Shown: positions 1 through 18,371 of the stretch, one piece after another | Position numbering within the stretch: the first letter of the stretch is position 1 | Layout of the letters: every line of letters begins with the position of its first letter | NCBI RefSeq assembly: GCF_011440395.1 | Contig: NZ_JAAOIX010000001.1 | Coordinates: 866,680-890,679, forward strand | From: Pseudomaricurvus alcaniphilus | GTDB lineage: Bacteria; Pseudomonadota; Gammaproteobacteria; Pseudomonadales; Cellvibrionaceae | Reading direction: 5' to 3' | DNA length: 24,000 bases | The notes under the pieces: generated by a model | What the model saw: the letters and a program-made list of their open reading frames with translations, nothing else | The model's database searches: none | What the model was told of the DNA's origin: nothing | Position numbers and translations under genes: made by a program

Positions 1-222
1 CGGTTTCAGCGCTTGCACCAGGCCATGGGCAAACTGGTGAGCGCCGGTATCCGGCAGCGGGATGTACGCAGCGACTACAGCATCGATTTGCTGGTGCAAA
101 TGCTGGTGGGTGGTTATCTGTACGCCCTGCTGAACTGGTTGACCAATGAAGACAAGGATCTCACCGGGGTCATGCAGGACACCGCCGCATTTTTGGCCGA
201 AGCTGTGGCCCCGGCAAAATAG
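1..222 (+). CDS. Transcriptional regulator, probably TetR/AcrR family; C-terminal fragment with the 5' end outside the window
   Basis: The frame is open from base 1 (RFQRLHQAMGKL...). The tail looks like a helical ligand-binding domain. It lies co-directionally upstream of the SDR genes. No DNA-binding domain is visible, so the family call is weak. Confidence 0.45.
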   Translation, partial: RFQRLHQAMGKLVSAGIRQRDVRSDYSIDLLVQMLVGGYLYALLNWLTNEDKDLTGVMQDTAAFLAEAVAPAK

Positions 223-325
223 CCAATGGCTGCGAAATAATTAATAGAGTGTGCTGGTGAAAATAGCCGTTGAACGACGTCACACTACATACAATTTTTA
301 CTCAATTGCTAGCGGGAGATAACCC

Positions 326-1132
326 ATGTTACTGGATGCTTTCAAACTCAATGGCAAGGTCGCCATAGTCACCGGAGCCGGCAAGGGCATCGGCAAATCG
401 GTGGCCGAAGGCCTGGCGCAATTGGGCGCGCACGTGGTCTGCGTCGCCCGCAGCCAGGAGGATATAGACGCAACCGCGGAATTGGTTAAAGGTCATGGCG
501 TCGACGCACTTGCCATCGCCTGCGATGTCACCAAAGAAGAGCAACTGCAAAACCTGGTGACCCGGACGGTGGAGAAGTTTGGCGCTATAGACATACTGGT
601 CAACAATGCCGGCGCCCCGGGCAAGGGCTTCGGCTCCATTGAAAAAGTCGACAAAACCCGGTTTGAGCACACCCTGGCCATCAACCTCACCTCGGCCTAT
701 ACCCTGGTGCACCTGTGCCTGCCCTACCTGCGCAAAAGCTCCTCGGCAGCGATCGTCAACGTTTCCTCGGCTTTAAGCTGGATGGTGGATAAAAACTTTT
801 CCGCCTACGCCGCGGCCAAGGCCGGTATGAACCAGATGACCAGGGTTATGTCATACGAATTGGCACCGCATATCCGCGTCAATGCTGTGGCTCCCGGCGC
901 CATTGAGACGCCCAGCACTTCGTTTATCACCAGTGATCCCCAGCGCAAGTCAGACGCCGAGCGCTGGATTCCCCTGCAACGACTGGGCAAACCGGAAGAC
1001 ATTGCCCTCGGCGTGCTCTACCTGGCCTCGGGCGCCAGCGCCTTCGTGAGCGGCAAGGTGCTGGAGATCGACGGTGGCATGCAGGCATTACCGGGCAGCG
1101 CCATCCAGGAAGTGATTGCACGCAACGGCTAA
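326..1132 (+). CDS. Short-chain dehydrogenase/reductase, FabG-like classical SDR
   Basis: ATG is preceded by GGGAGA. It has the cofactor motif TGAGKGIG, an NNAG motif and the catalytic S...YAAAK (YxxxK). At 268 aa it is typical SDR length. Confidence 0.9.
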   Translation: MLLDAFKLNGKVAIVTGAGKGIGKSVAEGLAQLGAHVVCVARSQEDIDATAELVKGHGVDALAIACDVTKEEQLQNLVTRTVEKFGAIDILVNNAGAPGKGFGSIEKVDKTRFEHTLAINLTSAYTLVHLCLPYLRKSSSAAIVNVSSALSWMVDKNFSAYAAAKAGMNQMTRVMSYELAPHIRVNAVAPGAIETPSTSFITSDPQRKSDAERWIPLQRLGKPEDIALGVLYLASGASAFVSGKVLEIDGGMQALPGSAIQEVIARNG

Positions 1133-1287
1133 CTGTCCGGTCCTTGCTTTAACTGCTGATTCGAACAGTGCACGAATTTGCCAACGGCAATGAATGCTGA
1201 AGTTCTACCGGGTAAGTTGGCAAACGCTTACGGTAATGGGATCGAAAATACCCTTGCCCAAAATTCCATTCTGAAAGGAGATAATAT

Positions 1288-2049
1288 ATGGGAGTCTATG
1301 CCCTCACTGGCGGTGCCACCGGTATCGGTGCCGCCATCAAACAGCAACTGCGAGACGCCGGCCACCGGGTTATCGTGGTCGACTTGAAAGACGCAGATAT
1401 CAACGCCGACCTGTCTACTGCCGAAGGCAGGAATTCAGCCATTGCCGGGGTTCGGGAACTGGCTGCGGAGGGTTTGCAAGGGCTGATTACCTGTGCCGGT
1501 GTCGCTTCCCATGTACCCAACCGTGCCCTCATTGCCAGCGTCAATTACTTCGGCAGTGTCGATCTGGTGGAAGGGTTAAAAGACCTGGTGGCGCAAGGCG
1601 GTGGCCGCATCGTTTTGGTATCTTCCAACTCGGCACCCATGTGCCAACAGACCGACTATCTCGATGCGCTTCTGGCCGGTGACGAAAAGCTCGCCGGCAT
1701 CAAGGCGGCAGAAATTACCGGACAGGAAGCCTACAGTGGCTCCAAGCAAGCCCTGGCGCGCTGGATGCGACGCAACACCAAATCCCTCGCCGGAGCCGGT
1801 ATCAGCATCAATGCCATTGCCCCTGGCTACACGGAAACCCCTATGACCCAGGCTGTCGCCAACGACCCGGCTTACGGCGATGCCATTAAACAATTTCTGA
1901 AAAGCATACCACTGGGCCGGCCGGGCAGCCCGGCAGATATGGCCAATATGGTGGAATTCCTGCTCAGCGACAAGGCCAGCTTTATCTGTGGCTCCGTGCT
2001 GTTTGTCGATGGTGGCCACGACGCCATGCTGCGCCCCGACAACTTCTAG
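1288..2049 (+). CDS. SDR oxidoreductase resembling 3-alpha-hydroxysteroid dehydrogenase/carbonyl reductase (Comamonas HsdA type)
   Basis: ATG is preceded by AAGGAG. It has TGGATGIG and YSGSK (YxxxK). The blocks ADLSTAEGR, SVNYFG, INAIAPGYTETP and VDGGHDAMLRP match my recollection of C. testosteroni 3alpha-HSD/CR. Confidence 0.8.
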   Translation: MGVYALTGGATGIGAAIKQQLRDAGHRVIVVDLKDADINADLSTAEGRNSAIAGVRELAAEGLQGLITCAGVASHVPNRALIASVNYFGSVDLVEGLKDLVAQGGGRIVLVSSNSAPMCQQTDYLDALLAGDEKLAGIKAAEITGQEAYSGSKQALARWMRRNTKSLAGAGISINAIAPGYTETPMTQAVANDPAYGDAIKQFLKSIPLGRPGSPADMANMVEFLLSDKASFICGSVLFVDGGHDAMLRPDNF

Positions 2050-2083
2050 AGTAGTGCCCTAAACGATATACAGCGGAGTCTTT

Positions 2084-3412
2084 ATGCCGACGATAGCAAA
2101 TAGCATCAAATCAATCTTTTTTATTGCCGCCATTTCCTTTGCACTCTGCCAGCCTGCGTCGGCCAGGGAAAGTGGTGTGCTTAGCGCGGAAGAGTCAGAC
2201 CCGCGAACACTCGGCTGGATGCAAGGCTTTCCACCGCCGGCAGACAAATTAATTATGCAGCCACAGTCCAACTACTTCAGCTTTCCACGCATACGCTGGA
2301 CTGTGTGCCATATGCGTGAACTCTTCCCCACCCAACAAGTGAGCCGCGGACTCGGTGCACCCACACCATTCGCCTACGCAATCGATAATAAAATAGACTC
2401 GGTTACATTTACCCCTCTTGGTGACAATCAGACAATGACATGGGCTGAGTCGCTGTCGACAAATTACACCGACGGCATGTTGATTCTGCACCGAGGAAAA
2501 ATCGTCTACGAAACCTATTCGGGCTGCCTGCAAGAGACGGGCAAACACGCTTCGATGTCAATGACCAAGTCACTGACTGGCCTGCTGGCAGAGATACTGG
2601 TGGCTGAAGGACAACTTGATGACAATGCCAGGGTATCCGCAATAATTCCCGAGCTTGGCAACAGCGGCTTTGGCAGCGCGACGGTGCGCCAGGTTATGGA
2701 TATGACCACGGCGCTCAATTATAGCGAGAACTATTCAGACCCCAAGGCAGATATTTGGATCTATTCCGCCGCTGCGAGCCCCTTGCCAAAAGCCAAAGAT
2801 TATCAGGGCCCCGATGGTTACTTTGAATACCTCCAGACGGTGAAAAAAAAGGGCAGACATGGCAAGGCTTTTGGCTACCGGACCATTAACAGCGACGCTT
2901 TGGGCTGGATCATCTCACGCACCACCGGCAAGGAGATGACAGATCTGCTGGCGGAAAAAATCTGGATGAAAATGGGTGCTGAACAAGATGCCTATTTAAC
3001 CGTTGACGGCAAAGGAGTGCCGTTCGCAGGCGGCGGCCTTAGCGCCGGCTTGCGCGATCTGGGTCGCATCGGGCAGCTGATGTTGAATGGCGGCGTTCTC
3101 AATGGTCAGCGCCTGTTCCCGGAATCGGTCGTCGCCAACATTCAGCAAGGTGGCGACAAGCAAGCCTTCGCCAAGGCGGGCTATGAAACTCTGCCGGGAG
3201 GCAGTTATCGCAGCATGTGGTGGCTGTTGCACAACCAGCACCAAGCCTATGCCGCTCGAGGCGTTTATGGCCAAACCATTTATGTCGACCCGACCGCGGA
3301 AATGGTTATTGTGCGTTTTGCGTCTTTACCCGTGGCAACAAACTCCTATAACGACCCGACGTCACTGCCCGCATACCAGGCTGTTGCTGAATACCTGATG
3401 ACGAAACCCTAA
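2084..3412 (+). CDS. Secreted serine hydrolase of the beta-lactamase/transpeptidase fold (class C / NylB / family VIII esterase-like)
   Basis: GGAG lies 5 nt upstream of the ATG. The N-terminal signal peptide ends in ASA|RE. The SxxK nucleophile motif is in ASMSMTKSLTG. At 442 aa the length fits this fold. Confidence 0.85.
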   Translation: MPTIANSIKSIFFIAAISFALCQPASARESGVLSAEESDPRTLGWMQGFPPPADKLIMQPQSNYFSFPRIRWTVCHMRELFPTQQVSRGLGAPTPFAYAIDNKIDSVTFTPLGDNQTMTWAESLSTNYTDGMLILHRGKIVYETYSGCLQETGKHASMSMTKSLTGLLAEILVAEGQLDDNARVSAIIPELGNSGFGSATVRQVMDMTTALNYSENYSDPKADIWIYSAAASPLPKAKDYQGPDGYFEYLQTVKKKGRHGKAFGYRTINSDALGWIISRTTGKEMTDLLAEKIWMKMGAEQDAYLTVDGKGVPFAGGGLSAGLRDLGRIGQLMLNGGVLNGQRLFPESVVANIQQGGDKQAFAKAGYETLPGGSYRSMWWLLHNQHQAYAARGVYGQTIYVDPTAEMVIVRFASLPVATNSYNDPTSLPAYQAVAEYLMTKP

Positions 3413-4712: not shown

Positions 4713-5810
4713 TTAGCGCTGGTCGAAGTCGACGACCACCTCATCGGTTAACGGATGTGCCTGGCAAGACAGAATAAAGCCCTGCTCTATTTCATGGGGC
4801 TCCAGACCGTGGGTTATGTCCATATCCACCTTGCCCTTGATCAACTTGCATTTACAGGTGGAGCAAACACCCGCCTTGCAGGAGTATGGCAATTCCATAC
4901 CGTTGTGCATACCCGCATCGAGGATATTTTCACCTACGGTCGCCAGATCGAACATAATGGAACGTCCATCCGCCACCACGGTGACCTTGCTGGTCTTTTC
5001 CTCGCCAAACTCCTGGATACGCTGTTGGGCTTTCTCCATTCTCTTTTGCGAATCCTCCGAAGAGTTGGCAAACAATTCATAGTGGATCTGCGAATCGAGC
5101 AGGCCTTCGACCCTGAAACCTCGTGACACCTCCGACATCATCGCTTCCGGGCCACAGATAAAGGCTTCGTCGGTGCCCTTGATGTCGATCAGTCCGGCCT
5201 TGGCAAGCGCGTAACCCTTCTTGTTGTCAATGCGCCCATTTAATAGATCCGCGCCCTGATCCTCATAATTCATGATATTGATCCACTGGAAGCGACTAAT
5301 ATAGCGATTCTTGACGAAGCTCAACTCATCCTTAAACATCACCGAGTTCGACCGGCGGTTACCGTAGATGAGGGTTACCCGACTTTTTGGCTCCTCAGCC
5401 AGGACCGTCTTGATAATCGAGAGTATGGGGGTAATGCCACTGCCGACCGCCAAACACATGTAATTTTTCTGGTTATTCGAGTCTACCTGGGTGAAGAAGC
5501 TGCCCTGGGGAGGCATTACCATAACCGTGTCACCCTCCTTGAAATTGTCGTTGGCATAATTGGAGAACACGCCATTCTTGACCCGCTTGATACCGACCCG
5601 CAGGTGCCCGTCATTCACCCCGGAACAGATCGAGTAGGAGCGGCGTACATCTTCACCCTCGATATCGGCCTTGAGGGTCAGGAATTGACCTTGAGTAAAC
5701 CTGAATTTGTCCTGCAGTTCGTCTGGCACGGCAAAGGTAATACAAACCGCTGTATCGGTTTCCGGCTGCACATCCGCAATCCTGAGGTTGTAGAAGTTTG
5801 TATCGGACAT
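4713..5810 (-). CDS. paaE: Phenylacetyl-CoA 1,2-epoxidase reductase subunit PaaE
   Basis: It has the FNR-type RRSYSI (RxYS) FAD motif and the GSGITP NAD(P)H motif. The C-terminal plant-type 2Fe-2S motif is CKAGVCSTC...C. It directly follows paaD. Confidence 0.93.
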   Translation of the reverse strand: MSDTNFYNLRIADVQPETDTAVCITFAVPDELQDKFRFTQGQFLTLKADIEGEDVRRSYSICSGVNDGHLRVGIKRVKNGVFSNYANDNFKEGDTVMVMPPQGSFFTQVDSNNQKNYMCLAVGSGITPILSIIKTVLAEEPKSRVTLIYGNRRSNSVMFKDELSFVKNRYISRFQWINIMNYEDQGADLLNGRIDNKKGYALAKAGLIDIKGTDEAFICGPEAMMSEVSRGFRVEGLLDSQIHYELFANSSEDSQKRMEKAQQRIQEFGEEKTSKVTVVADGRSIMFDLATVGENILDAGMHNGMELPYSCKAGVCSTCKCKLIKGKVDMDITHGLEPHEIEQGFILSCQAHPLTDEVVVDFDQR

Positions 5811-5818
5811 CGTTACAC

Positions 5819-6394
5819 CTATATTGTTTTAAAATAATCGAAGGGCTCACCACAGTCGCTGCATTGAAACAGCGCCTTACAGGCCGTAGAGCCAAATTCA
5901 CTGACTCGCACCGTATTTTCAGAGCCACATTGGGGGCAAGGCACATGTTGCTCAGGCGTCGCCCCTGTCTCAGTATCTTGCGGTGGAGCGATACCATAAT
6001 TACGCAGTTTTTTCCTGCCCTCCGATGACATCCACTCGGTAGTCCAGGCCGGAGCCAGTTGGGCCTTGATTTCGTGATCGGTCAGGCCGCCTGCATTCAA
6101 CGCCACTTCGATATCGCTGCGAATGGTGTCCATCGCGGGGCAACCCGAGTAGGTGGGTGTGATTGTGACAATGACCTTACCCGCTATTACCTCAACATCT
6201 CGCAACACACCGAGATCCCATATCGATAGTGCCGGAATCTCAGGGTCCTTGACCTGGTCGAGCAGGTCCCAAATCTCCGCACAACTGGAGTTTTGCCGAT
6301 ACTGTTCGCGCTCATACTGTTCCTGGGATATCAGTGGAATAAGGTTCATAGTTTTACTATCTGTACCCTCAGGGTTACCTTTCTGTGCGTTCAA
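5819..6394 (-). CDS. paaD: Phenylacetate-CoA oxygenase subunit PaaD
   Basis: It carries a DUF59-like block (DPEIPALSIWDLGVLRDV) and a C-terminal Cys pair motif CPQCGS...CSDCGEPFDYFK. The TTG start at 6394 is supported by a strong GGAGGT 8 nt upstream. An alternative ATG lies at 6349. Confidence 0.88.
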   Translation of the reverse strand: MNAQKGNPEGTDSKTMNLIPLISQEQYEREQYRQNSSCAEIWDLLDQVKDPEIPALSIWDLGVLRDVEVIAGKVIVTITPTYSGCPAMDTIRSDIEVALNAGGLTDHEIKAQLAPAWTTEWMSSEGRKKLRNYGIAPPQDTETGATPEQHVPCPQCGSENTVRVSEFGSTACKALFQCSDCGEPFDYFKTI

Positions 6395-6439
6395 AACTGC
6401 GTACCTCCAGGCTTTTCATTTACCCAGGCTCAGGGCGGT

Positions 6440-7210
6440 TTACCACTGACAGCCCGGGTAGGCTCTGTAGACCGACTGCATATCGGTCAACAAGTGACCC
6501 AGGTTTTCGGTATGGTAGCCGACACGCCCACCGCGCACAGCCCAATCGCCGGCCGGAATTTCCAGAGTAGCCTCACTGAGAATGGCCTTAATTTCAACTT
6601 CCCACTGTGCCTTGAGGCGGGTGGTGTCAACCGCGATGCCCGCATCCACAAGTTGCTGTTCCAGCTCATCCAGCTCGAACATCTCGAAGGTATACCCCCA
6701 GAGGGCGTCGACCGCGGTTTGCGCACGTTGATGGCTCTCCTCCGTGCCGTCACCCAGGCGCAGCACCCATTCCCGGCTGCGGCGCAAGTGATACCGGGTT
6801 TCCTTGCTCGCCTTGGCAGCGATCGCGGCCAGGGTTGCATCCTTGGATTTAACCAACTCGGCAAGAAAGCCTGTATTGAATGCGTCCACCAGCAACTGCC
6901 GCACCTGGGTGTAGGCAAAATCGCCTTTGGGCAGCTCATTGATCAGCAGATTTTTATATTCACGGGCATCGCGCATATAGGCGAAGTCGTCTTCCGTCCT
7001 GCCGTCACCGGCGAGTTCCGCGGCATAGCCGTAGAACATTCGGGCGCGGCCGATATAGTCCAGCGCCACATTGCCTAACGCAATATCCTCCTCCAAAAAG
7101 GGGCCGTTGCTTACCCACTCCGAAATTCTGTGCCCCAGCACGACCGAGTCGTCGCCGAGGCGCAGCGCGTATTCCAGCGTCGCCTGTTTTAAATCTGTAG
7201 CACTCATCAT
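6440..7210 (-). CDS. paaC: Phenylacetyl-CoA 1,2-epoxidase subunit PaaC
   Basis: It sits between paaB and paaD. It is a 256 aa ferritin-like helical protein with a GGAGA RBS. The order paaABCDE is conserved. Confidence 0.9.
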   Translation of the reverse strand: MMSATDLKQATLEYALRLGDDSVVLGHRISEWVSNGPFLEEDIALGNVALDYIGRARMFYGYAAELAGDGRTEDDFAYMRDAREYKNLLINELPKGDFAYTQVRQLLVDAFNTGFLAELVKSKDATLAAIAAKASKETRYHLRRSREWVLRLGDGTEESHQRAQTAVDALWGYTFEMFELDELEQQLVDAGIAVDTTRLKAQWEVEIKAILSEATLEIPAGDWAVRGGRVGYHTENLGHLLTDMQSVYRAYPGCQW

Positions 7211-7227
7211 TGATTCTCCGGGCTCGC

Positions 7228-7515
7228 TTACATGTTGTTAACAGGATCGGGAAGCTTGTAGTAAGTCGCGTGCCGATAGGGCTTATCATCCGAGGGGTCG
7301 TAAAAGCTCTCCGCATCGTCTTCCTGGGAAGCACAGATGTCGTCGGACTTCACCACCCAGATGCTCACACCCTCGCTGCGGCGCGTATAAACATCGCGCG
7401 CGTACTCCAGGGCTTGCTCGTGGTCTTCCGCGTGCAGGCTGCCCACATGCTTGTGATCCAGCCCGCGCTTGGAGCGGATAAAAACTTCAAATAATTCCAG
7501 GTTTTCGGGTTTCAT
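7228..7515 (-). CDS. paaB: Phenylacetyl-CoA 1,2-epoxidase subunit PaaB
   Basis: It is 95 aa with a GGAG RBS at 8 nt spacing. The conserved PaaB block is DVYTRRSEGVSIWVV. It lies immediately after paaA. Confidence 0.93.
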   Translation of the reverse strand: MKPENLELFEVFIRSKRGLDHKHVGSLHAEDHEQALEYARDVYTRRSEGVSIWVVKSDDICASQEDDAESFYDPSDDKPYRHATYYKLPDPVNNM

Positions 7516-7548
7516 AACGGGTACTCCGATATCTCGTTCAGCCTTGCC

Positions 7549-8514
7549 TTATGCAGCATGCCGGGATTTTTTGGCGCTCTTCTTCTCGTTATAAGCAGTT
7601 ATCGCATCGCGAACCCATGCGCCTTCCTCATGGGCCTTGACGTGGTGTTCGATCCGCTGACGATTGCAGTGACCGTTGCCATTGATCACATTGTAGAATT
7701 CATCCCAGTCAAGATCTCCGTGATCGTAATGACCACGCTCTTCGTTCCACTTGAGTTCCTTGTCCGGGTGTTCCAGCCCGAGGTACTCGATCTGGGGTAC
7801 GGTTTGGTCGATAAATTTCTGGCGCAGGTCATCATTGGTCTCGCGCTTGATTTTCCACTCCATCGATTTGGCGGAGTGTGCAGACTCGGAGTCGTGGGGG
7901 CCGAACATCATCAACGCGGGCCAGTAAAAACGGTTGAGCGAATCCTGCGCCATTTTTTTCTGCTCTGCACTGCCGTGGGCCAGCGCAATCATAAGCTCGT
8001 AACCCTGGCGCTGGTGGAAGCTCTCCTCCTTGCAGATACGGATCATGCCGCGGGCATAGGGGCCATAGGAGGTCCGCTGCAGAGAGACCTGATTAACAAT
8101 AGCGGCACCGTCGACCAGCCAGCCGATCGCACCGATATCACCCCAGGTCTGGGTGGGGTAGTTAAAGATGGATGCGTACTTGGCCGCGCCGGTTTGCAGC
8201 GCTTCGATCATCTCCGCCCGCGAAATACCCAGGGTCTCCGCCGAGCTGTACAAGTACAGACCATGACCGGCCTCGTCCTGCACCTTCGACAACAACACCG
8301 CCTTGCGGCGCAAAGAGGGTGCCCGAGTAATCCAGTTGCCCTCGGGCTGCATGCCGATGACTTCTGAATGGGCGTGCTGTTGTATTTGGCGGATCAGGTT
8401 CTTGCGGTAAGCGTCCGGCATCCAATCCTTGGGCTCGATCTTCTCTTCCGCCTCAATCTTGCGCATAAAGTTTTTTTCAGGATCCATACTCATGACCATT
8501 ATTCCCCGCTGCAT
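7549..8514 (-). CDS. paaA: Phenylacetyl-CoA 1,2-epoxidase catalytic subunit PaaA
   Basis: It is near-collinear with my recollection of E. coli PaaA ([33 protein letters not shown] di-iron ligand motifs). The true start is probably one of the internal ATGs at 8499, 8493 or 8487; GGGGAA lies 8 nt before the ATG at 8493. Confidence 0.95.
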
Positions 8515-8529
8515 CAGTTTACGTGGTCT

Positions 8530-8558
8530 ATATTATGATACACATATCTCTTTGTAAA
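8530..8558 (-). promoter_or_regulatory. Sigma70-type promoter of the paaABCDE operon
   Basis: The minus strand reads TTTACA-17 nt-TAATAT. This lies about 15-30 nt upstream of the candidate paaA start codons. Confidence 0.55.
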
Positions 8559-8577
8559 GCTTTATTATGTGTCATAA
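8533..8577. promoter_or_regulatory. Candidate operator: inverted repeat TTATGA(TA)CACATA - 19 nt - TATGTGTCATAA overlapping the paaA promoter
   Basis: The arms at 8533-8546 and 8566-8577 are complementary except for a 2-nt TA indel. The left arm fills the -35/-10 spacer and the -35 hexamer lies between the arms. Confidence 0.5.
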
Positions 8578-8797: not shown

Positions 8798-9367
8798 CTA
8801 GTGGAGCTGGTCGTTAATTGCATATATGACATGGATACTCAGGAGAAATACGGTAACCGGGACAAACTTGTTTAGTTGCCGAACAATGGCTGGCGGATTG
8901 CTTTTACTGTATTCACTGGAGGTGTGAAGCGCGGCAACAAATTTTGTCAGCCACAAGTAAATAACGGTGACTCCAAGTGAACCCAGCAGCCATGCGAGAA
9001 CAGTGCTTTTGGCCCAGTAGTCCTGCTGGAACACAAAAATCATTACCGCCATAGGTGGTTCAAGAAATAACAGCCCTCTGTCCAGGCCGGAAAGGAGCCC
9101 GGTATCGTTTGGATCCGGTTTCAGGAAGAGGTAGCCGCTACCGAGATAGATCCAGAAAACCGAGAATATGGCCAGAATACAGGCTGAGACAGTATGACCG
9201 GCCTGGATGGCCAATATTAAACATACACAATGGGGGAGCGCGCCACAAAGCAGAAGGAGCAGCCCGCCGAATTTTGGTGGCAGCATTTTCATGGATAGCC
9301 CGATAAAAATACCACAGACCAGATAGATGCTGGTTAGCGCCAAAAGAATAACGTTAAAATCATGCAT
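8798..9367 (-). CDS. Hypothetical integral membrane protein with about 6 predicted TM helices
   Basis: The 189 aa ORF has six hydrophobic stretches of about 20 residues. It lies between the PaaI-like gene and the paaA promoter. I recognise no family motif, and its GC content looks lower than its neighbours. Confidence 0.6.
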   Translation of the reverse strand: MHDFNVILLALTSIYLVCGIFIGLSMKMLPPKFGGLLLLLCGALPHCVCLILAIQAGHTVSACILAIFSVFWIYLGSGYLFLKPDPNDTGLLSGLDRGLLFLEPPMAVMIFVFQQDYWAKSTVLAWLLGSLGVTVIYLWLTKFVAALHTSSEYSKSNPPAIVRQLNKFVPVTVFLLSIHVIYAINDQLH

Positions 9368-9396
9368 AAAGGTGTTGCCCTTAACTAATTAAAAAT

Positions 9397-9849
9397 TTAT
9401 TTATTCATGGGTATGATGACATTGGTCGCGCTGGCCGATGCTATGTGTTTGCCCGCCTCGTCATGCAGGTCCGCATGGGAAAACGAAATGGTGCGCCCCT
9501 TGCGAATAACCCTGGCTGTGCCGACATAGACTCCCGCCGGTGCCGGACGCAGGAATTCGACATTAAGATTCGTGGTGCCAATGGAGTAGCCTTCATCCAG
9601 GTCGGCAAGCAGTAAGACGGCCATGGTGAAATCCAGCATGCCCGCAACGATACCGCCTTGAACTACCCCGCCGCCGTGGAGAAAACGTTCATCGGTGACA
9701 AAGGACAGACGCGCTTCCATCGCATCCATATCCAGCGCATCGATGGTCGAGGTGAGTAATTCGGCGATGGGCGACGCCCGAAATTCCACCGGAAACACCT
9801 GCTCATCAACAACTTTGCGTAACTCGCGTTGAAATAAATCGTATGCCAT
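9397..9849 (-). CDS. paaI: PaaI-family hotdog-fold acyl-CoA thioesterase
   Basis: GGAGG lies 6 nt upstream of the ATG. The motif HGGGVVQGGIVAGMLD is typical of the PaaI/TIGR00369 thioesterase family. The 150 aa length and the paa context fit. Confidence 0.8.
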   Translation of the reverse strand: MAYDLFQRELRKVVDEQVFPVEFRASPIAELLTSTIDALDMDAMEARLSFVTDERFLHGGGVVQGGIVAGMLDFTMAVLLLADLDEGYSIGTTNLNVEFLRPAPAGVYVGTARVIRKGRTISFSHADLHDEAGKHIASASATNVIIPMNK

Positions 9850-10004
9850 TGTGCGCCTCCTTACAGGGGCCTGAATATGTTTGCCGAAATCGGTTGCCAG
9901 TTTAGGTAACGCAAAGCGACCCGCTGGTTAGAACAATAACAACAGCGCTGGCGGTGAGAATGCCCTATTGTCCTGGTTTGGCCTGGCTTGGGCAGGCACT
10001 ATGC

Positions 10005-10076
10005 CACGGTTACCCTGTATGTCACGGTCACCTTGTATGTCACGGTTACCTTGTACACCACGGTTATCTTGCGTAG
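10005..10076. repeat. Four contiguous copies of an 18-bp tandem repeat (CACGGTTACCTTGTATGT consensus)
   Basis: The units are 10005-10022, 10023-10040, 10041-10058 and 10059-10076, degenerating toward the last. Each contains a GGTNACC palindrome. The last unit covers the acylase stop codon and its final 3 full codons, plus part of a fourth. Confidence 0.9.
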
Positions 10077-12580
10077 CGTAAAGTGACAGCAGCTTCCGTC
10101 ATCTGCTCGACCTGAGCACGGCTAAAGGGCAATGGCTTGTGTTCAAAGCGCTGATAGAGCTCCATCTGATCGGCGTAGTGCGGGCTTCTGGAGCCGTCGG
10201 GTGCAATAAACCCGCTCTGTCCCGGAGGAGCCACATCGGAACCCTCGATGTGCGAGCCGCGGGCGATAAAGAGATTGTTTTCCGTACCCCGATTCATCAC
10301 CACCGGTAACGACATTTCGTTGTCTACCGTGGTCTGGCGCACCCCACGAAAGTTGTTAACACCAAAAACAAGCGGATGCGGCTTGACCCGCCAGGCCGCT
10401 ATATCCGTGCCGTGCTCAGTTTGCAGTTGCGCCAGCGCAGCAGTGAAGGTTTCAACCAATAGCTGGGCCGGGTCCTGGCCGTTAAAGAAATCGAAGCCGC
10501 TGATCTCCCCGTTCCGGTGTTGATCCAGGATGCGCACTAAAGCCTTGGTTCCCGGCGATGCGCCCACCGCTCCGGTGATCCTGCCGGTGGGATAGCCCGG
10601 CGAGGCGAAACGGAAAAAGAACTTATCGCCGATATCGTCGGCAAATACTCGGGCTAGCAACCGCTTGAGCCAGGCCTCCATGATCGCCGGCCCGGCGCTG
10701 TCGAAGTAGCCATCGGCGTCCTTATCCCACCAGTATTTGTCCCAGCCCTGCAGTTCAGCCAACCCGGCGCTGGTGAGCGCAGACTGCTTTGCCCCGGCCA
10801 GGGCGTCAGTCAAGTAGGGCAACAAATAGGCGACATTGACATCGGCATAGGAGGTGCGGCTGTTGATGTCCCATACCTGCTCAGCTGTCAGGCTTTGTCG
10901 GGCTACCAGCTCGTCGATGATGGTATCGGCGCGATCCACCCTGCCCCAGTTTTTCCACCACATATCGATAGCGCGCCAACCCCGCGCCGGCCGATTATTC
11001 CAGTTCTGGATATAACCCTGCTCGGGGTTGTAGACGTAGGGATTGCTTTCGAAGGGCAGCCAGCCCTGCCAGTCCATGGAGCCATCGCCCTTGGCCGGGA
11101 ACCGACTGTCGTGCTGGGCGTGGCGCAGCGGATACTTGCCGCCGTGGGTGTAGCCAATATTGCCCTCGCTATCGATATAGTAAAAGTTGATATTGATGGC
11201 AATACGCGCAACATAGTTACGCCACTGGGAGAAGTTTTTCGCCTTCGGCATGTCCACCCACGCCATCATGGTCTCCAGTTCGTGGTCTTCCCAGGCGCGC
11301 TTCTTGCTAAAGGCAACGCCCTTGGCACTGTCGTGCAGAATCACCGGCCCATGCACACTGCGATAAAACGTGACACTGGTGGGCTGCTGCCCTTTGACCG
11401 GAATTTGTTCGTCACGCCGCTCAAAAAACCGATAGCTGCCCTGGTACAGGTATTGATCTGGGTTTTCAGGATTCAGTTGCAGCTCGAAGATATCGACCTG
11501 GTCGCCATATCCCGCGGTGCTGCCCCAGCCGATAGAGTTATTGTGCGCAAACAACACCGCGGGATAGGCCAACATGGTGTTACCCACCACGTCCCAGTCT
11601 GCACCGTGCAGGCCGACGCCGTACACATAGGAAGGGTTGATCCAGCCAAACTGCGGGCCGTTTACCAGCACCGCCTTGGCATCCCGGGCCTTGTGCTTAT
11701 TCACCAGCCACACATTGCTGGTGGTGGGAAATCCGGCCGTGCCGGAATTACCCGATAGCGCATAGTGCTTGTTCAGATAGGCACTCCGCTCTTCGTCACT
11801 CGCGATAGCCAGGTGTCCGCCACTGGCATCCATGGCAAGCCGTACCGGCGGGTTAATGTCCCGGTCGGTTAGATAGGAGGGTGGATTGGTGGGGTTTTGC
11901 CTGTTGCCAGATTGCAAGCTGCTGTCATCGGGCACCGTAGTCGGTGAGTCGCTATCGTAGAGCGGCTGCACCGTATTGACGATCTTCCAGGCTTCGTCGT
12001 CGGTATAACGGGTGCGGAGATTCTGGTAGAAGGCCAGGTTATTGAGCTCCTCATTGAAATCCGCATAGCGGTGGGCCATGCTGCCCGCAAAGATCATTGC
12101 CACTTCATAGGCGGTGAGCCTGGAAGGCATGAATCCGTAATCCAGGAATTCTTTCGGCATCAGCTTCTCGGGACGCTTGTTCACTTCCGCCAGCCAGCTG
12201 TTATAACCTGCAGCGTAACCCTCCAGCACATCGCGATGCTCCTCACTGAGCGCCGCCATCTGCCGACGAATGGAATCAGGATCAAAGCCCTGGCGCACCT
12301 GCTTATCGACCTCGACAAAGTCTGCGCCCAATACCTCGGCCGCTGTACCCGTCACCGTCCGTTTGGTCATTTCCATCTGGAACAAGCGGTCCTGCGCCAC
12401 AGCGTAGCCGTAGCCGTAAAACACGCCAAAATTATCTTCGGCATAGATATGGGGTACGCCGTAACTGTCACGCTTGATGGTCACTTCCCCTGCACCTTTG
12501 CCGGGTAGTGAATTTACAGTGCAACCGGCCAGAATGAGGCACATTAAGCTGGCAACCAGCCACCGGGATCGTGCATGCAT
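10064..12580 (-). CDS. pac: Penicillin G acylase-type Ntn-hydrolase (penicillin amidase family), predicted lipoprotein
   Basis: AAGGAG lies 8 nt upstream of the ATG. The lipobox is LILAG|C. The alpha chain block is DSYGVPHIYAEDNFGVFYGYGYAVAQDRLFQMEM. The beta chain begins SNVWLV (nucleophile Ser), followed by NGPQFGW and NWNN. It is collinear over its whole length with my recollection of E. coli PGA. Confidence 0.92.
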   Translation of the reverse strand: MHARSRWLVASLMCLILAGCTVNSLPGKGAGEVTIKRDSYGVPHIYAEDNFGVFYGYGYAVAQDRLFQMEMTKRTVTGTAAEVLGADFVEVDKQVRQGFDPDSIRRQMAALSEEHRDVLEGYAAGYNSWLAEVNKRPEKLMPKEFLDYGFMPSRLTAYEVAMIFAGSMAHRYADFNEELNNLAFYQNLRTRYTDDEAWKIVNTVQPLYDSDSPTTVPDDSSLQSGNRQNPTNPPSYLTDRDINPPVRLAMDASGGHLAIASDEERSAYLNKHYALSGNSGTAGFPTTSNVWLVNKHKARDAKAVLVNGPQFGWINPSYVYGVGLHGADWDVVGNTMLAYPAVLFAHNNSIGWGSTAGYGDQVDIFELQLNPENPDQYLYQGSYRFFERRDEQIPVKGQQPTSVTFYRSVHGPVILHDSAKGVAFSKKRAWEDHELETMMAWVDMPKAKNFSQWRNYVARIAININFYYIDSEGNIGYTHGGKYPLRHAQHDSRFPAKGDGSMDWQGWLPFESNPYVYNPEQGYIQNWNNRPARGWRAIDMWWKNWGRVDRADTIIDELVARQSLTAEQVWDINSRTSYADVNVAYLLPYLTDALAGAKQSALTSAGLAELQGWDKYWWDKDADGYFDSAGPAIMEAWLKRLLARVFADDIGDKFFFRFASPGYPTGRITGAVGASPGTKALVRILDQHRNGEISGFDFFNGQDPAQLLVETFTAALAQLQTEHGTDIAAWRVKPHPLVFGVNNFRGVRQTTVDNEMSLPVVMNRGTENNLFIARGSHIEGSDVAPPGQSGFIAPDGSRSPHYADQMELYQRFEHKPLPFSRAQVEQMTEAAVTLRYAR

Positions 12581-12607
12581 GATCGGTACTCCTTACGTTA
12601 GGCACGG

Positions 12608-12635
12608 AAAAAAAGGGTGCATGTAAAATGCACCC
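12608..12635 (-). terminator. Rho-independent terminator between the TonB-dependent receptor gene and the acylase gene
   Basis: The minus strand reads GGGTGCAT-TTTAC-ATGCACCC followed by TTTTTTT. It lies 27 nt after the receptor stop and 27 nt before the acylase ATG. Confidence 0.8.
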
Positions 12636-12662
12636 ATCGAGCTTATCCGTTCAGTTGAACAG

Positions 12663-14885
12663 CTAGTAGTTCTGCCAGGTTACTGACACACCGTAGGTGG
12701 CAGGCGCGCCCCATACACCAACAGCGGAGCCGGCGAAGTTATAGGCATGGGAGATGTATTCCTCGTCGGACAGGTTTTTGCCCCACAATGCTACCAGCCA
12801 TTTCTCATCGCTGGACTGCCAGGCGATCCGCCCGTTCCAGAGCCCAAACTCCTCTATTACAACGTCCTCGTTGAGATAGTCACCAACCTGTTCATCGCTG
12901 TAGGCGTAGTCGAGACGGAATTTCAAGTTGCCCGATTCGATCGGATACTCGTAATTCACAGTAGCGGTAAAGGTATTCTCAGGCGCCTGGCGCAGCGCAC
13001 CACCTGATGCGTCGACGTTGCCAAGGTTGAAATCCTTGGTTTCCGTATCGAGGTAGGCGTAGTTACCGGACAGCTGCAGGTTGTCAGTGACCGCCCAAAT
13101 CGCCTCCATTTCCAGCCCTTTGATCTCCGCTTCACCCAGATTGACTGTGGTGAAGAATTCGTTGGGGTTACCCGACCCCGGAATAACACCAAAGCGAACC
13201 GCCTGCAGGTCCGTATAGTCCATGTAGTAAGCGGTGAGGTTAAGCCGCACGGTATGGTCAAAGAAGTCGCCTTTCATACCGACTTCGTAGTTGATCACCT
13301 CTTCCGGATCAACCGCTGCATGGGCTAATTTAATCGGGGGGATATTGGGAAAGCCGCCGCTCTTGAAGCCCTTGGCGATGCTGCCGAAGATCATCACATC
13401 ATCAGTGACTCGGTAATCCACGGCAACCTTGGGCGATACATCCTCCCAGCTTTCATCGGCTGTGCTGAAAAAGCTCTCTGCCATAAAGAAGGTTCCGGCC
13501 GAGACGCCATTACAAATGGCCATACTTTGCGCGGCGACGAACGGATCCGTGATTGTCGCCGGATCGTCTGCACAGCGGATATTCAATGCAGTCACATCCT
13601 TTTTATCACGGGTAAAGCGCAAGCCCAAATGCAGCGACAGCTCGTTGGTCAGGGCCCAACTGGCCTGTCCATAGGCGGCAAAGCTCTCTGTTTCGTTGGT
13701 TGCGAAGTGCGTAGATCGCGCAGTTTCGAGCAGCGGTGGGCCGGCAGAGAAAACCCGAAAGGATTCCGAGCGGTCGGTCTCTTCCTGCAGATAATAGAGG
13801 CCCGCGACGAAGTTAAAATCCCCATCGAGCTGTGACGTCCAGCGCAGCTCCTGGCTTAACTGGTCAGTCTGTTCCTGAATATCATCGAGCAGATCGGCAT
13901 CCGCGCCAAACACACCCGCGATTCCCGATGAGGCCATCTGCCAGTCAGTTTCCGACTCGCGCCAGGCGGTAATGGAAGTCAGGGTGCCGCTGCCCAAATC
14001 GAAATTGACACTCAGGTTGGCGCCCTGGGCGTCTCTTTTGGACCCGCCTTCGATCGGGGTGGCTACCTTGTGAGGATTGGCTCGTCCGGAGCCTTGCGCT
14101 TCGGCCAGCGCATTCAGGGGGCCGGCGAAGGGTGTACGCCCCATATCCTCAGATTCCTCGTCCATGAAATCTGCGGAGAATATTACCTCAGTGTTGTTGG
14201 ATGCATGCCAGAGCAGCTGAACACGCCCCGAATCCTTATTCGCATCAGCCTGGTCCTTGTTCAGCGCCACGTTTCGTACATAGCCATCGTGCTCATTGTG
14301 GCTAAAGGAGACTTTGCCCAGCAGGTTTTCCGCCAAGGCGCCACTCACCAGCCCCTCGTACTTCATGTGACCCTCATTTCCAACCGAAACCGTACCCTTA
14401 ACGGTCAGGTCTTCGGTGGGCTTGGAGGTAACAATGTTGATCGCACCACCGATGGCATTGCGGCCAAACAGGGTTCCCTGGGGGCCTCGCAGTATCTCAA
14501 TGCGCTCCAGGTCGTAAAGATCAAAGTTAATATTGGAGGGGCGGCCAATGTACACCCCGTCCAGAAAAGCCGTCACGGAGTTATCCATTCCCGGCCCGTC
14601 GTCCGCCGATGTAATTCCCCGCAGTGATATCAGCGCCTGTCCCGGCGCGAACTCAGCGTAGGACATGCCAGGCGCATACAGCGCTACTTCTGTTGCGCCG
14701 CGAATATCGGCCTCTTCCATCATTTCGCCCGCCATAGCTGTTACTGAAACCGGGACGTCCTGTAGATTCTCTTCACGGTGCTGTGCGGTTACTATTATTT
14801 CCTCAATGGCCGCCATGGTGGGCGCGGCAATTGTCGCTGCTGCAATCCCGGAGATAGCCAGATTCAGAATCGATCGCTTGAGCAT
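12663..14885 (-). CDS. TonB-dependent outer-membrane receptor
   Basis: The signal peptide is MLKRSILNLAISGIAAATIAAPTMA. The plug-domain start is EEIIVTAQHREENLQDVPVSVTA. It has a beta-barrel-type sequence with a C-terminal aromatic residue (..TWQNY). I moved the start to the ATG at 14885, which has GGAG 6 nt upstream; the ORF track begins at the TTG at 14897. Confidence 0.92.
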   Translation of the reverse strand: MLKRSILNLAISGIAAATIAAPTMAAIEEIIVTAQHREENLQDVPVSVTAMAGEMMEEADIRGATEVALYAPGMSYAEFAPGQALISLRGITSADDGPGMDNSVTAFLDGVYIGRPSNINFDLYDLERIEILRGPQGTLFGRNAIGGAINIVTSKPTEDLTVKGTVSVGNEGHMKYEGLVSGALAENLLGKVSFSHNEHDGYVRNVALNKDQADANKDSGRVQLLWHASNNTEVIFSADFMDEESEDMGRTPFAGPLNALAEAQGSGRANPHKVATPIEGGSKRDAQGANLSVNFDLGSGTLTSITAWRESETDWQMASSGIAGVFGADADLLDDIQEQTDQLSQELRWTSQLDGDFNFVAGLYYLQEETDRSESFRVFSAGPPLLETARSTHFATNETESFAAYGQASWALTNELSLHLGLRFTRDKKDVTALNIRCADDPATITDPFVAAQSMAICNGVSAGTFFMAESFFSTADESWEDVSPKVAVDYRVTDDVMIFGSIAKGFKSGGFPNIPPIKLAHAAVDPEEVINYEVGMKGDFFDHTVRLNLTAYYMDYTDLQAVRFGVIPGSGNPNEFFTTVNLGEAEIKGLEMEAIWAVTDNLQLSGNYAYLDTETKDFNLGNVDASGGALRQAPENTFTATVNYEYPIESGNLKFRLDYAYSDEQVGDYLNEDVVIEEFGLWNGRIAWQSSDEKWLVALWGKNLSDEEYISHAYNFAGSAVGVWGAPATYGVSVTWQNY

Positions 14886-14941
14886 GTTGGTCTCCAATTT
14901 ATTTTATTAGTCTTAGCTGCCAAACAGTTTTGTCAGAACGT

Positions 14942-14975
14942 GACACAATTAATTAAGTGCACACCATTATTGTGT
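14942..14975. promoter_or_regulatory. Candidate operator upstream of the TonB-dependent receptor gene: GTGACACAAT - N19 - ATTGTGTAACAC
   Basis: It has the same ACACA-N23-TGTGT geometry as the sites upstream of paaA and paaF. Its near edge lies 57 nt upstream of the receptor ATG at 14885, in an AT-rich leader. Confidence 0.45.
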
Positions 14976-15216
14976 AACACTTTTTAAGAGATGTCCAACC
15001 TATTCTATCGGGCGCCTGTCCGCAACCTGCCCATGCTTGTTTTAAGGTCATTGCTGTGCAGACAGGAACCCATAGATTTCAAGAACTTACTGAATTGAGG
15101 GAGGCGGAACCGGCACCTGTGGGGGATAAAAAAATGAGATTCTTTACGGCGCCTATCTGAAAATTATTCTTAAAATTATAGTTGTAACTTGATACCAGGC
15201 TGAACAGCCTGGCGCG

Positions 15217-15286
15217 CATTCAAAGGTATGCACTTAAAGGTTAGGAATCAAACGTGAGGAATCAAAGGTTAGCACTCAAAGTGCCA
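15217..15286. repeat. Five contiguous degenerate copies of a 14-bp tandem repeat (consensus about GAATCAAAGGTTAG)
   Basis: The units are cattcaaaggtatg, cacttaaaggttag, gaatcaaacgtgag, gaatcaaaggttag and cactcaaagtgcca. They match the consensus at 9-12 of 14 positions. The period is not a multiple of 3, and the array lies in a 625-bp non-coding spacer. Confidence 0.75.
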
Positions 15287-15509
15287 CTCGATCGAGTCGC
15301 AGAGTTCACTATCCGCTTCCTTGATGTGGCGCACTATGGCAGCTGATAAATGAATCAACTCCAATGGCTCGGCAGCACGGAAAGCCCACCAGTAGCGGCA
15401 CAATCCGTGCCTTGACTTTATTTTCCAGGCGTCATGTCATGTTGATGCCCGCGACGCCGCGCCGTGTTCAAACACGGCAGAAACGGTTGTTTCGACAAGC
15501 CTCTACGGG

Positions 15510-17057
15510 TCAAGCCCCATCGATAAACCTGCCACCGCCATAAACCTTACGTTGCAATAACGGCGAGACGCGGTAACGATCTTCACCATAGGTGTACAAC
15601 AGGTTCTTTAAAACCTGTTCTATATAAACAAGACCAATATGATCAGCCCAGGCCAAAGGCCCCTGGGGGTAGTTCACCCCATCGCGCATGGCCGTATCCA
15701 CCGCCTCGGCATTGCACACTTGCTGGTTGACCGCATCTGCCCCTTCATTCGCCAGCGCGCACAATGTCCGCATTACGACCATACCGGGTATATCGTCAAT
15801 CACCGAGACCTGCTTGCCGATGGCCTTGAACAAGCCAATCGCCTTATCCAGTGACGCAGCGTCAGCCTGGTCAGAAGCACAGATCGCAATTCGTTGCGCA
15901 TTGCTATAATCCAGCGCCAGGTCAAACAGAACTACATTGGGGTTGTCACTCTGGGCACTGACTTGAGTCGCCGTTCGACCGTCCGTTAGTCGCACCATCA
16001 CACCTTCTATTTCGATACAGCTATCACCTGAGGTCGGTTTGGCGTCTATCTCAATACCGGCATTGGCAAACTGGTTACGCAGGGGCTCGCAAACACCCAA
16101 CTCACCGTAAATGCTGATACGGCCAGGCTTGAACCCTGAATCTGCATTCGAGGGGACTGCAGCAACGGCTTGCTCGCTATAGTCATAGAAACCACGGCCA
16201 CTTTTGCGCCCCAGAAACCCGGCATTTACGTACTCCAGTTGCACCACTGCAGGCTTGAAGCGGGGATCCTGGTAAAAAGCGTTAAACACCGACTCGGACA
16301 CGGCATAATTGACGTCGTTGCCAATAAGATCCATCAGTTCGAAGGGGCCCATGCGAAAACCACCACTCTCCCTGGCAATGGCATCTATGGTGGGGATATC
16401 CGCTCCGCCCTCCTGAAACACTCGCATGGCTTCCGTATAAAATGGCCGCGCGACGCGGTTGACGATAAAGCCGGGTGTCGATTTTGCGTGCACGGGATTC
16501 TTGCCCCAGGCCAACGCTGTTTCGTAAACGCATGCAGCAATCTTCGGGTCAGTGGCAACGCCGCTGATGACCTCGACCAGCTTCATAACCGGTGCCGGAT
16601 TAAAAAAATGCATGCCCACCAAATTCCACGGCCGCTTCAAGCCGGCACCAATCGCTGTTACCGATATAGAAGAGGTATTGGTAGCCAGTATCACATCGTC
16701 ACTACAGATGTCTTCCAGCCCCGCAAAGACCTTTTGCTTGATCTCAAGGCTTTCCACAATGGCTTCGATAATAAAGGACGCGTCAGCCAACGCTTCCATA
16801 GCTTCATGAGGCTCGATCCGAGCGACCAGTGCGGCGGCCTCAGCGTCACTCATCTTGCCCCGCGCCACCTGTCGCGCCAGCCCCGTGCGAATATTGTCGA
16901 TGCCACTGGTCGCAGCACCTGGCGCGGTGTCGAATAACTTCACTCTGTGACCGGCCGCGGCAGCGACCTGGGCAATACCTGCACCCATGGTGCCAGCACC
17001 AATGACGCCGATTATTTTGTCTGCTGTTAAGCTAACCATGTTATTCACAACCCTCAT
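15510..17057 (-). CDS. paaH: 3-hydroxyadipyl-CoA (3-hydroxyacyl-CoA) dehydrogenase PaaH, long form
   Basis: The N-terminal Rossmann motif is IGVIGAGTMGAGIAQ. It has the 3-hydroxyacyl-CoA dehydrogenase NAD-binding and C-terminal domains plus a duplicated C-terminal domain, as in E. coli PaaH. It follows paaF. An alternative start lies at the ATG at 17039. Confidence 0.88.
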   Translation of the reverse strand: MRVVNNMVSLTADKIIGVIGAGTMGAGIAQVAAAAGHRVKLFDTAPGAATSGIDNIRTGLARQVARGKMSDAEAAALVARIEPHEAMEALADASFIIEAIVESLEIKQKVFAGLEDICSDDVILATNTSSISVTAIGAGLKRPWNLVGMHFFNPAPVMKLVEVISGVATDPKIAACVYETALAWGKNPVHAKSTPGFIVNRVARPFYTEAMRVFQEGGADIPTIDAIARESGGFRMGPFELMDLIGNDVNYAVSESVFNAFYQDPRFKPAVVQLEYVNAGFLGRKSGRGFYDYSEQAVAAVPSNADSGFKPGRISIYGELGVCEPLRNQFANAGIEIDAKPTSGDSCIEIEGVMVRLTDGRTATQVSAQSDNPNVVLFDLALDYSNAQRIAICASDQADAASLDKAIGLFKAIGKQVSVIDDIPGMVVMRTLCALANEGADAVNQQVCNAEAVDTAMRDGVNYPQGPLAWADHIGLVYIEQVLKNLLYTYGEDRYRVSPLLQRKVYGGGRFIDGA

Positions 17058-17111
17058 TCACCTTTAAATACTGGAAATACTGGCGGGCGCTTTTCCATAA
17101 ACGCAGTTACA

Positions 17112-17163
17112 CCTTTCCGGTTATCCTGAGCTTTTGCCCTGAGCTGTTATCCAGAATTGTTAT
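17112..17163. repeat. Four contiguous degenerate copies of a 13-bp tandem repeat (CCTGAGCTGTTAT consensus)
   Basis: The units are cctttccggttat, cctgagcttttgc, cctgagctgttat and ccagaattgttat. The array ends 1 nt from the paaF stop codon, in the paaF-paaH intergenic spacer. Confidence 0.7.
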
Positions 17164-17164
17164 T

Positions 17165-17944
17165 CTATGCGCCCTTGAAATTCGGTTTTCTCTTTTCCAG
17201 AAAAGCGTTAATGCCTTCGTTTCTGTCCTCGGTACCGGCCAGCATGACAAACGCCTTGCGCTCATATTTTAGCCCTGCTTCCAGTGACGTCTCGAACGCA
17301 TTGAGGAGCACATCCTTGGCCTGTTCTACGGCAATTGGCGGCTTTGCGGCAATCTTGCCGGCGATTTCAAGAGCGCGTTCGATACTGGCCTCGGGTAGGG
17401 TTACGTCTGAAACAAGGCCCGCCGCCAGGGCTTCTGCGGCGGATATAAACTCTCCCGCCAGCACCATTTTCATGGCCAGTGATTTCCCCACTGCGCGAAT
17501 CAACCGCTGGGTACCGCCTGCGCCAGGGATAATGCCCATATTTATTTCCGGCTGGCCAAATTTTGCGGTCTCGCCGGCGACAACGATATCGGCGTGCATA
17601 ACCAGTTCACAGCCGGCCCCGAGCGCATAGCCATTGACCGCCGCGATAAGCGGCTTTCGGAAATCACTGATTCGCTGCCACAGCTGCGGGCGCGGCTCAT
17701 ACAGAATGCCCAACATATCCGCTTCACTCATCGCCTTTAAGTCGGCCCCGGCGGCAAAAACCTCGGCACCACCGGTGATCACTACGGCGCGGACATCCTT
17801 ACGGGCCCCGAAATCCTCGAGCACAGACACCAGCTCTTCCAGGACGGCGGTCGACAGGGCATTTAACACTTTCGGGCGGTTGATCGTGATCAACGCGACA
17901 CCACTGGCGGGATGATCCAGCAATAGATATTTGAGGTTATTCAT
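17165..17944 (-). CDS. paaF: 2,3-dehydroadipyl-CoA hydratase (enoyl-CoA hydratase) PaaF
   Basis: From MNNLKYLLLD onward it is collinear with my recollection of E. coli PaaF (FAAGADL, AAVNGYALGAGCEL, PEINMGIIPGAGGTQRLIRAVGKSLA, TEDRNEGINAFLEKRKPNFKG). The 57-codon extension in the ORF track (to 18115) is AT-rich promoter DNA. Confidence 0.9.
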   Translation of the reverse strand: MNNLKYLLLDHPASGVALITINRPKVLNALSTAVLEELVSVLEDFGARKDVRAVVITGGAEVFAAGADLKAMSEADMLGILYEPRPQLWQRISDFRKPLIAAVNGYALGAGCELVMHADIVVAGETAKFGQPEINMGIIPGAGGTQRLIRAVGKSLAMKMVLAGEFISAAEALAAGLVSDVTLPEASIERALEIAGKIAAKPPIAVEQAKDVLLNAFETSLEAGLKYERKAFVMLAGTEDRNEGINAFLEKRKPNFKGA

Positions 17945-17992
17945 TTTGGCTTCAGCATAATCTCCAGAAGGGTAGGCATAATACTTCAAACA

Positions 17993-18029
17993 GATACACA
18001 TTTCTACATATATAGATAATGTATGTATC
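17993..18029. promoter_or_regulatory. Candidate operator upstream of paaF: GATACACAT - N21 - ATGTATC (extended right arm ATGTATGTATCAT)
   Basis: It has the same 9-mer GATACACAT and the same spacing as the paaA site. It starts 49 nt upstream of the paaF ATG. Confidence 0.45.
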
Positions 18030-18371
18030 ATTATTTTGGCTGTCAGCTTACACCATGATTCAAAAGTTATTATCAGGAGTGACGTTATAGCCAAGTGCAA
18101 TATTGACTTTGTCATGCCCGGCCTCGCTGGTTGGCATCAGCTCCGTGGTGATGGATGGCGCCGACATCGACCTGCCACCGGCACCGGCACCATTTCAAAA
18201 TGGATTTCGTACGGCCTGCAGTGAGGACTGAAAATACAAACTAATCACTCGTGGATATGCTATCTGCCTGTTTAATCTTTCTGCTTGTTCGTGCCTGGCG
18301 AATGCCCACCTTGCGCAACTGCCAATCCAAATATTTAATAATTAAAACCCCTCTATATGCAGCACAATAGC

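Follow-up and report, generated by a model that had tools for sequence, protein, structure and literature searches.

Among the described regulators of phenylacetate catabolism, the closest to the locus analysed here is PaaX of Escherichia coli, which represses the promoters Pa, Pz and Px, responds to phenylacetyl-CoA as inducer and has the operator TGATTC-N27-GAATCA (PMC9493321). For the E. coli operators this review points to Ferrandez 2000, Kim 2004, Galan 2004 and Fernandez 2014, and, judging by two titles in its reference list (Galan 2004 and Kim 2004), PaaX also represses pac; PaaX of Pseudomonas sp. Y2 is credited there, through del Peso-Santos 2006, with a similar binding sequence (PMC9493321). 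PaaR, a TetR-type regulator, likewise represses paa promoters and responds to phenylacetyl-CoA, with the same operator repeated at several paa units (PMC2770484, PMC9493321).

Based on pattern searches, a weight matrix trained on foreign paa promoters and comparisons to PaaX-encoding loci of other genomes, we propose that three sites in a 24,000-nt stretch of DNA from Pseudomaricurvus alcaniphilus (the window) are, with high probability, operators of a PaaX-family repressor. They would place three units, i.e. two paa operons and a receptor-acylase operon, under one control.

In agreement with the E. coli operators, the sites consist of inverted 6-bp half-sites around a 27-bp spacer with four to five of six bases in common per half-site, and they are placed at paa and penicillin G acylase promoters, overlapping core promoter elements. 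The half-sites differ mainly at position 5, which is A in the window and T in the E. coli consensus, and TGATAC(A) is preferred in the window and in most non-enteric PaaX loci sampled, whereas E. coli prefers TGATTC(G). The arrangement also differs from E. coli in that the paa genes of the window are distributed over separate units with one operator each, the acylase gene is preceded by that of a TonB-dependent receptor (TBDR), and paaX is not adjacent. Coordination of several units, including an upstream feeding pathway, appears to be shared with Pseudomonas sp. Y2, as far as the review describes its paa and sty promoters, although the feeding module is a receptor with an acylase here and styrene oxidation there, the boxes being compared by description only. 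In contrast, the PaaR operator of Burkholderia cenocepacia, Thermus and Corynebacterium is a compact, GC-rich 15-bp palindrome, ACCGACCGGTCGGTT, unrelated in geometry and sequence. This palindrome has only four matches in the window, each with three mismatches and all in coding sequence, and none in the three promoter regions, so that a PaaR-type operator is ruled out, as had already been suspected when the motif was first noticed.

The window has a G+C content of 54%, and its nearest paaA relatives in the reference genome set are those of a Marinobacterium metagenome-assembled genome (MAG; 87%) and Candidatus Njordibacter (84%). Its predicted features are listed in Table 1. The receptor contains the Pfam domains Plug and TonB_dep_Rec_b-barrel. 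The 838-aa protein is closely homologous to penicillin G acylases of solved structure (E 3e-190 to 7reo), and the beta chain of the E. coli penicillin G acylase aligns with it from residue 288. Shared strand and short gaps suggest that the genes for the receptor, the acylase, the thioesterase and the 189-aa protein form one operon; this module sits between paaFH and paaABCDE. In locus L086 a MarR-like protein occupies the position of the 189-aa protein, which was therefore considered as a hidden regulator but rejected, as it has no family match itself.

Table 1 Predicted features of the window and PaaX-type sites in other genomes. Positions are those of the window unless a locus is named; scores in bits for sites are weight-matrix scores.
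Feature	Position	Strand	Details
paaABCDE, predicted target operon 1	4713..8499	minus	phenylacetyl-CoA epoxidase; NCBIfam equivalog matches above cut-off, PaaA to PaaE
TBDR-acylase unit, predicted target operon 3	8798..14897	minus	four genes
189-aa ORF	8798-9367	minus	without family match; just upstream of paaA
hotdog thioesterase	9397-9849	minus	
penicillin G acylase homologue	10064-12580	minus	838 aa; Penicil_amidase, E 3e-138
TonB-dependent receptor (TBDR)	12663-about 14885	minus	receptor models below cut-offs
paaF-paaH, predicted target operon 2	15510..17944	minus	2,3-dehydroadipyl-CoA hydratase and 3-hydroxyadipyl-CoA dehydrogenase
paaH	15510-17057	minus	690 bits, above NCBIfam cut-off
paaF	17165-17944	minus	373 bits, above NCBIfam cut-off
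RND efflux pump	from 18357		divergent to paaFH
promoter-like site, paaABCDE	8530..8558	minus	-35 TTTACA 8558-8553, 17-nt spacer, -10 TAATAT 8535-8530
predicted PaaX-type operator 1, paaA promoter	8536..8574		TGATAC-N27-GTGTCA; spacer 21/27 A+T; 36.2 bits
predicted PaaX-type operator 2, paaF-paaH	17992..18030		AGATAC-N27-GTATCA; spacer 22/27 A+T; 32.8 bits
predicted PaaX-type operator 3, TBDR-acylase	14941..14979		TGACAC-N27-GTAACA; spacer 20/27 A+T; 24.6 bits, weakest
PaaX-type site upstream of receptor gene	L088 18673-18711		24.8 bits
PaaX-type site upstream of receptor gene	L103 924-962		33.6 bits
PaaX-type site upstream of receptor gene	L104 2515-2553		28.6 bits
box just upstream of paaA or in paaX-paaA divergent region	L003		Alteromonadaceae MAG; at most 1 mismatch
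box upstream of paaA or in paaX-paaA divergent region	L011, L025, L028, L052		four Bordetella/Achromobacter genomes; at most 1 mismatch
box upstream of paaA or in paaX-paaA divergent region	L041		Casimicrobiaceae MAG; at most 1 mismatch
box upstream of paaA or in paaX-paaA divergent region	L043		Bryobacteraceae MAG, three sites; at most 1 mismatch

Several further details of the window were noted. To the left of the paa genes (window 1-3412, together with L082 1-13087) lies an unrelated cluster with a TetR gene, several short-chain dehydrogenases, a KshA-like Rieske oxygenase, acyl-CoA dehydrogenases, a second TonB-dependent receptor and a beta-lactamase-family protein. This cluster resembles a distinct catabolic island, under a regulator of its own, that would act on steroids or other hydrophobic substrates. 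Upstream of paaF, a mini-ORF of five codons (ATG CTG AAG CCA AAA TGA, 17958-17941, minus strand) stands behind a GGAG at 17965-17962. As its stop codon overlaps the paaF start codon (ATGA) and paaF lacks a Shine-Dalgarno sequence at normal distance, paaF may be translated by coupling to this mini-ORF. An unusually long gap of about 530 nt (14980-15509) separates the end of paaH from the TBDR operator and contains a terminator-like hairpin 3' of paaFH (15286-15270, minus strand) and, at about 15244-15269, the short direct repeat AGGAATCAAA. A scan of the whole window against Rfam gave no RNA element at gathering score.

The three sites were originally described by the pattern ACACA-N23-TGTRT, which a search of the 24 kb finds at 8540-8572, 14943-14975 and 17996-18028 only, confirming that the core seen at paaA recurs with identical spacing upstream of paaF and the TBDR gene. 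Exact matches to the longer pattern GATACACAT-N21-ATGTRTC are found at paaA (8537-8573) and paaF (17993-18029), and the arms of the inverted repeat at paaA (8533-8542, TTATGATACA; 8568-8577, TGTGTCATAA) are 10 nt each, 90% complementary and 25 nt apart. Counted as strand-matches, the shorter pattern occurs five times against 0.10 expected from shuffles, with 1 of 100 shuffles reaching five, in agreement with the initial annotation, which had put its chance frequency well under once per 24 kb. The sites are all intergenic, and their proximal edges lie 37-56 nt upstream of the first start codon of a minus-strand unit (start codons used: paaA 8487-8499, paaF 17944, TBDR about 14885), within the roughly 60 nt given before; for operator 2 the distance to the paaF ATG is 48 nt.

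Read one base further outward, the repeat becomes TGAYAC-N27-GTRTCA, which spans 39 bp, has an AT-rich spacer and gives the half-site consensus TGAYACA. This is the 6 + N27 + 6 geometry of PaaX, contrary to the initial annotation, which had judged the motif unlike a PaaX box and had suggested that the regulator may be of another type. Of the 15 positions of the PaaX consensus quoted there, WWTRTGATTCGYGWT, the paaA half-site agrees at 11, and the likeness was missed because the repeat had been read in its inner register (ACACA). The window shows inverted half-sites with N27 located at predicted paa and acylase promoters, and the same box is found in PaaX-encoding genomes. A text search of the literature for PaaX together with GATACA gave no mention, within a scope to which the original PaaX papers do not belong.

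The position of the sites relative to the predicted promoters is that of a repressor operator. At paaA, the -35 hexamer lies within the operator spacer and the -10 hexamer abuts the proximal half-site, as read from the sequence; together with the repeat search, this confirms that the inverted repeat brackets the -35 and fills the promoter spacer. The sequence TTTACA-17-TAATAT, formerly described as a near-consensus promoter, is indeed present, but with 9 of 12 consensus matches in a promoter scan it is promoter-like at most, and such sites are not enriched around paaA (2 found versus 0.9 expected). Two overlapping promoter-like sites were detected on the minus strand at paaF, and the predicted hexamers at paaF and at the TBDR gene likewise overlap the operators. 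In many relatives the distal half-site is followed, 5-8 bp further inward, by a TTGAC-like -35, and a TATCAT-like -10 overlaps with the proximal half-site, GTATCAT. The known PaaX operator geometry and the overlap with promoter hexamers support the earlier prediction of a repressor operator overlapping the paaA promoter.

To score the sites, we used a symmetrised weight matrix of 14 foreign paa-promoter sites, none of them from the window. The matrix ranks exactly the three sites at the top of the window (Table 1), the fourth hit reaching 11.6 bits and the null maximum per 24 kb being 8.2 +/- 2.9 (largest 19.8, 200 Markov shuffles), a ranking in which the half-site columns are partly circular, since the training sites were first chosen by a window-derived pattern. 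Independent of that choice are the flanking positions, the composition of the spacer, the location of the sites in the genomes and the two held-out PaaX loci, L175 and L177, each of which shows a single site (38.7 and 45.1 bits, respectively) 33-39 nt upstream of paaA. In a 19-kb stretch of E. coli DNA, the best hit of the matrix is the experimentally known Pa operator (20.1 bits), which in E. coli K-12 reads TGATTC-N27-GAATCG (L081 4876-4914). The view that the three sites of the window belong to one regulon is supported. That they are chance matches, or copies of a small mobile or repetitive element, we consider extremely improbable. Short words like ACACA or TGTAT are indeed frequent in these AT-rich regions, but three sites stand against 0.10 expected, the matrix scores are far above the null and the position is conserved in other genomes. 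Copies of one mobile element can be ruled out altogether, because the three spacers are unrelated to each other and the half-sites are the only common part.

The box is associated with PaaX in other genomes. We sampled 80 paaA loci and searched them with E. coli PaaX using tblastn; a PaaX homologue lies within 10 kb of paaA in 16 loci, the E. coli reference L081 counted. TGATAC-N27-GTATCA, allowing at most one mismatch, is found no more than 400 bp upstream of paaA in 7/16 loci with PaaX versus 3/66 without (Fisher p = 2.6e-4), and in 6/2000 random 400-bp segments. The PaaX-encoding Njordibacter locus L002 has a single perfect site, located between the divergent paaK and paaZ. PaaX loci added later via a protein search carry sites before paaZ and paaA (L086, L090), before paaZ/paaK and paaA (L088) or before paaX itself (L092), and a weight-matrix scan detects a site scoring 24 bits or more in 17 of 23 PaaX loci. 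The box spans gamma-, beta- and alphaproteobacterial as well as acidobacterial PaaX-encoding loci, several times in the paaX-paaA divergent region or upstream of paaX; footprinting of paa upstream regions in relatives, suggested earlier as a check, thus finds it in the paa promoters of many PaaX-encoding genomes.

Two observations concern variation of the box. In the Marinobacterium MAG whose paaA is 87% identical (L001 9744-9783), TGATAC-N28-GTATCA is located about 200 nt upstream of paaA, and since E. coli Pz also reads as N28, the spacer length of the predicted PaaX box is not absolutely fixed. In an alignment of PaaX homologues, the predicted recognition helix (ERFVRTALFRL in E. coli) has F or Y before RL where the boxes read TGATAC or TGATTC (L002, L003, L086, L088, L090 and E. 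coli), and S in the PaaX of L019 and L023, the boxes of which read TGTTAC; S also occurs in the homologues of L057 and L064, two loci that gave no clear box. Helix and box may reflect covariation of protein-DNA specificity.

A paaX gene was found neither in the window nor in the 10 kb on each side (44 kb in total; tblastn and gene lists), in agreement with the initial annotation, which had judged the regulator not identifiable in the window. Six candidates among Njordibacter PaaX homologues all come from other assemblies and none from the source genome. The only regulator genes in the 44 kb are a TetR gene beside dehydrogenase genes (L082 9277-9897, corresponding to window 1-222) and an AraC-type gene 8 kb to the right (L084 17118-18236). 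Their presence, along with the lack of paaX in the 44 kb, would allow one of these regulators to bind the sites, the PaaX likeness being convergent. We regard this as quite improbable, since the same box stands in the paa promoters of PaaX loci from the lineages named above, half-sites spaced by 33 bp within a 39-bp operator are the signature of PaaX and unlike the 15-bp PaaR palindrome, the latter is missing from all intergenic regions of the window, and the TetR gene adjoins unrelated dehydrogenase genes. As paaG, paaI, paaJ, paaK, paaZ and paaY are all absent from this stretch, a second paa locus must exist in the source genome; in relatives, these are the genes with which paaX sits, and the source genome presumably carries paaX elsewhere.

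The third site, upstream of the TBDR gene, is the weakest and deserves separate consideration. It has two half-site mismatches (TGACAC and GTAACA), and its score is little above the largest null value, which leaves a small probability that function is limited to the paaA and paaF sites and that the TBDR site, in its AT-rich promoter region, resembles them by chance. We consider this unlikely. The spacing is exactly N27 with an AT-rich spacer, and the variants TGACAC and TGTTAC recur in other paa operators. Moreover, all homologous operons with available sequence upstream of the receptor gene (L088, L103 and L104; Table 1) have a strong site at the same position. The weakest site of the window is therefore conserved in position in independent lineages. 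A link between PaaX and pac is, by the titles the review cites, also established in E. coli (PMC9493321).

TBDR-acylase pairs homologous to that of the window (41-50% identity) lie beside paa genes in L088, L005, L100 and L104, and L103 holds a further pair with no paa gene seen nearby. Several marine gammaproteobacterial genomes and metagenome contigs have, adjacent to paa clusters, a receptor gene with the gene of an acylase homologue directly behind it (receptor-acylase loci: L088 13937-18638, L005 1-3712, L100, L103, L104 and L177). The metagenomes were scanned with an alignment of three acylases as query; a scan with the TBDR protein alone gave no relative. Among the matches of the acylase scan are contigs 99.5% identical to E. 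coli genomes annotated with penicillin G acylase, and about 115 nt upstream of this E. coli pac gene the matrix detects CGATTC-N27-GTATCA at 25.3 bits (L116 1319-1357; the same in L102 and L113). Should this match coincide with the pac operator of the literature, a TGATAC half-site would be used even by E. coli PaaX. We note that the spacer of the pac site encloses a CRP-like half-site, GATCACA. An interplay of PaaX and cAMP-CRP at pac has been published, which the presence of this half-site inside the pac site fits.

Taken together, we propose the following mechanism, in which binding of PaaX to the window sites, its response to phenylacetyl-CoA and the occlusion of the promoters are modelled on the E. 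coli and Pseudomonas literature. PaaX, a GntR-like, phenylacetyl-CoA-responsive repressor of the paa catabolon, would contact the two TGAYACA half-sites (6-7 bp) on one face of the DNA, their centres being 33 bp, i.e. about three helical turns, apart, a distance that would suit a dimer with two far-apart winged-helix domains. At paaA, the bound repressor would likely exclude RNA polymerase, because the operator covers the -35 and the whole promoter spacer and abuts the -10. On activation of phenylacetate to phenylacetyl-CoA, the repressor would leave the DNA and the three units would be expressed together, paaABCDE providing ring epoxidation and paaFH the beta-oxidation-like steps. The TBDR-acylase-thioesterase operon would probably import and deacylate phenylacetylated compounds, the substrates suggested by its gene content, and thereby feed the pathway.

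In conclusion, sequence alone allowed three operons to be assigned to their regulator and its probable inducer, and none of the findings overturns current understanding. The 6 + N27 + 6 geometry of the E. coli operator is retained in distant phyla, where the half-site is usually TGATAC, and the matrix can be used for annotating PaaX regulons. The findings tie a TonB-dependent receptor and an acylase homologue to phenylacetate catabolism which extends the PaaX-pac link of E. coli and hints at the uptake of phenylacetyl conjugates. With even odds in our estimation, the PaaX regulon of a set of marine Gammaproteobacteria includes a dedicated TonB-dependent receptor, coupled to a periplasmic penicillin G acylase homologue, for an active scavenging of phenylacetylated compounds that is induced by the phenylacetyl-CoA arising from their breakdown, TGATAC(A)-N27 being the common form of the box and TGATTC a local variant.
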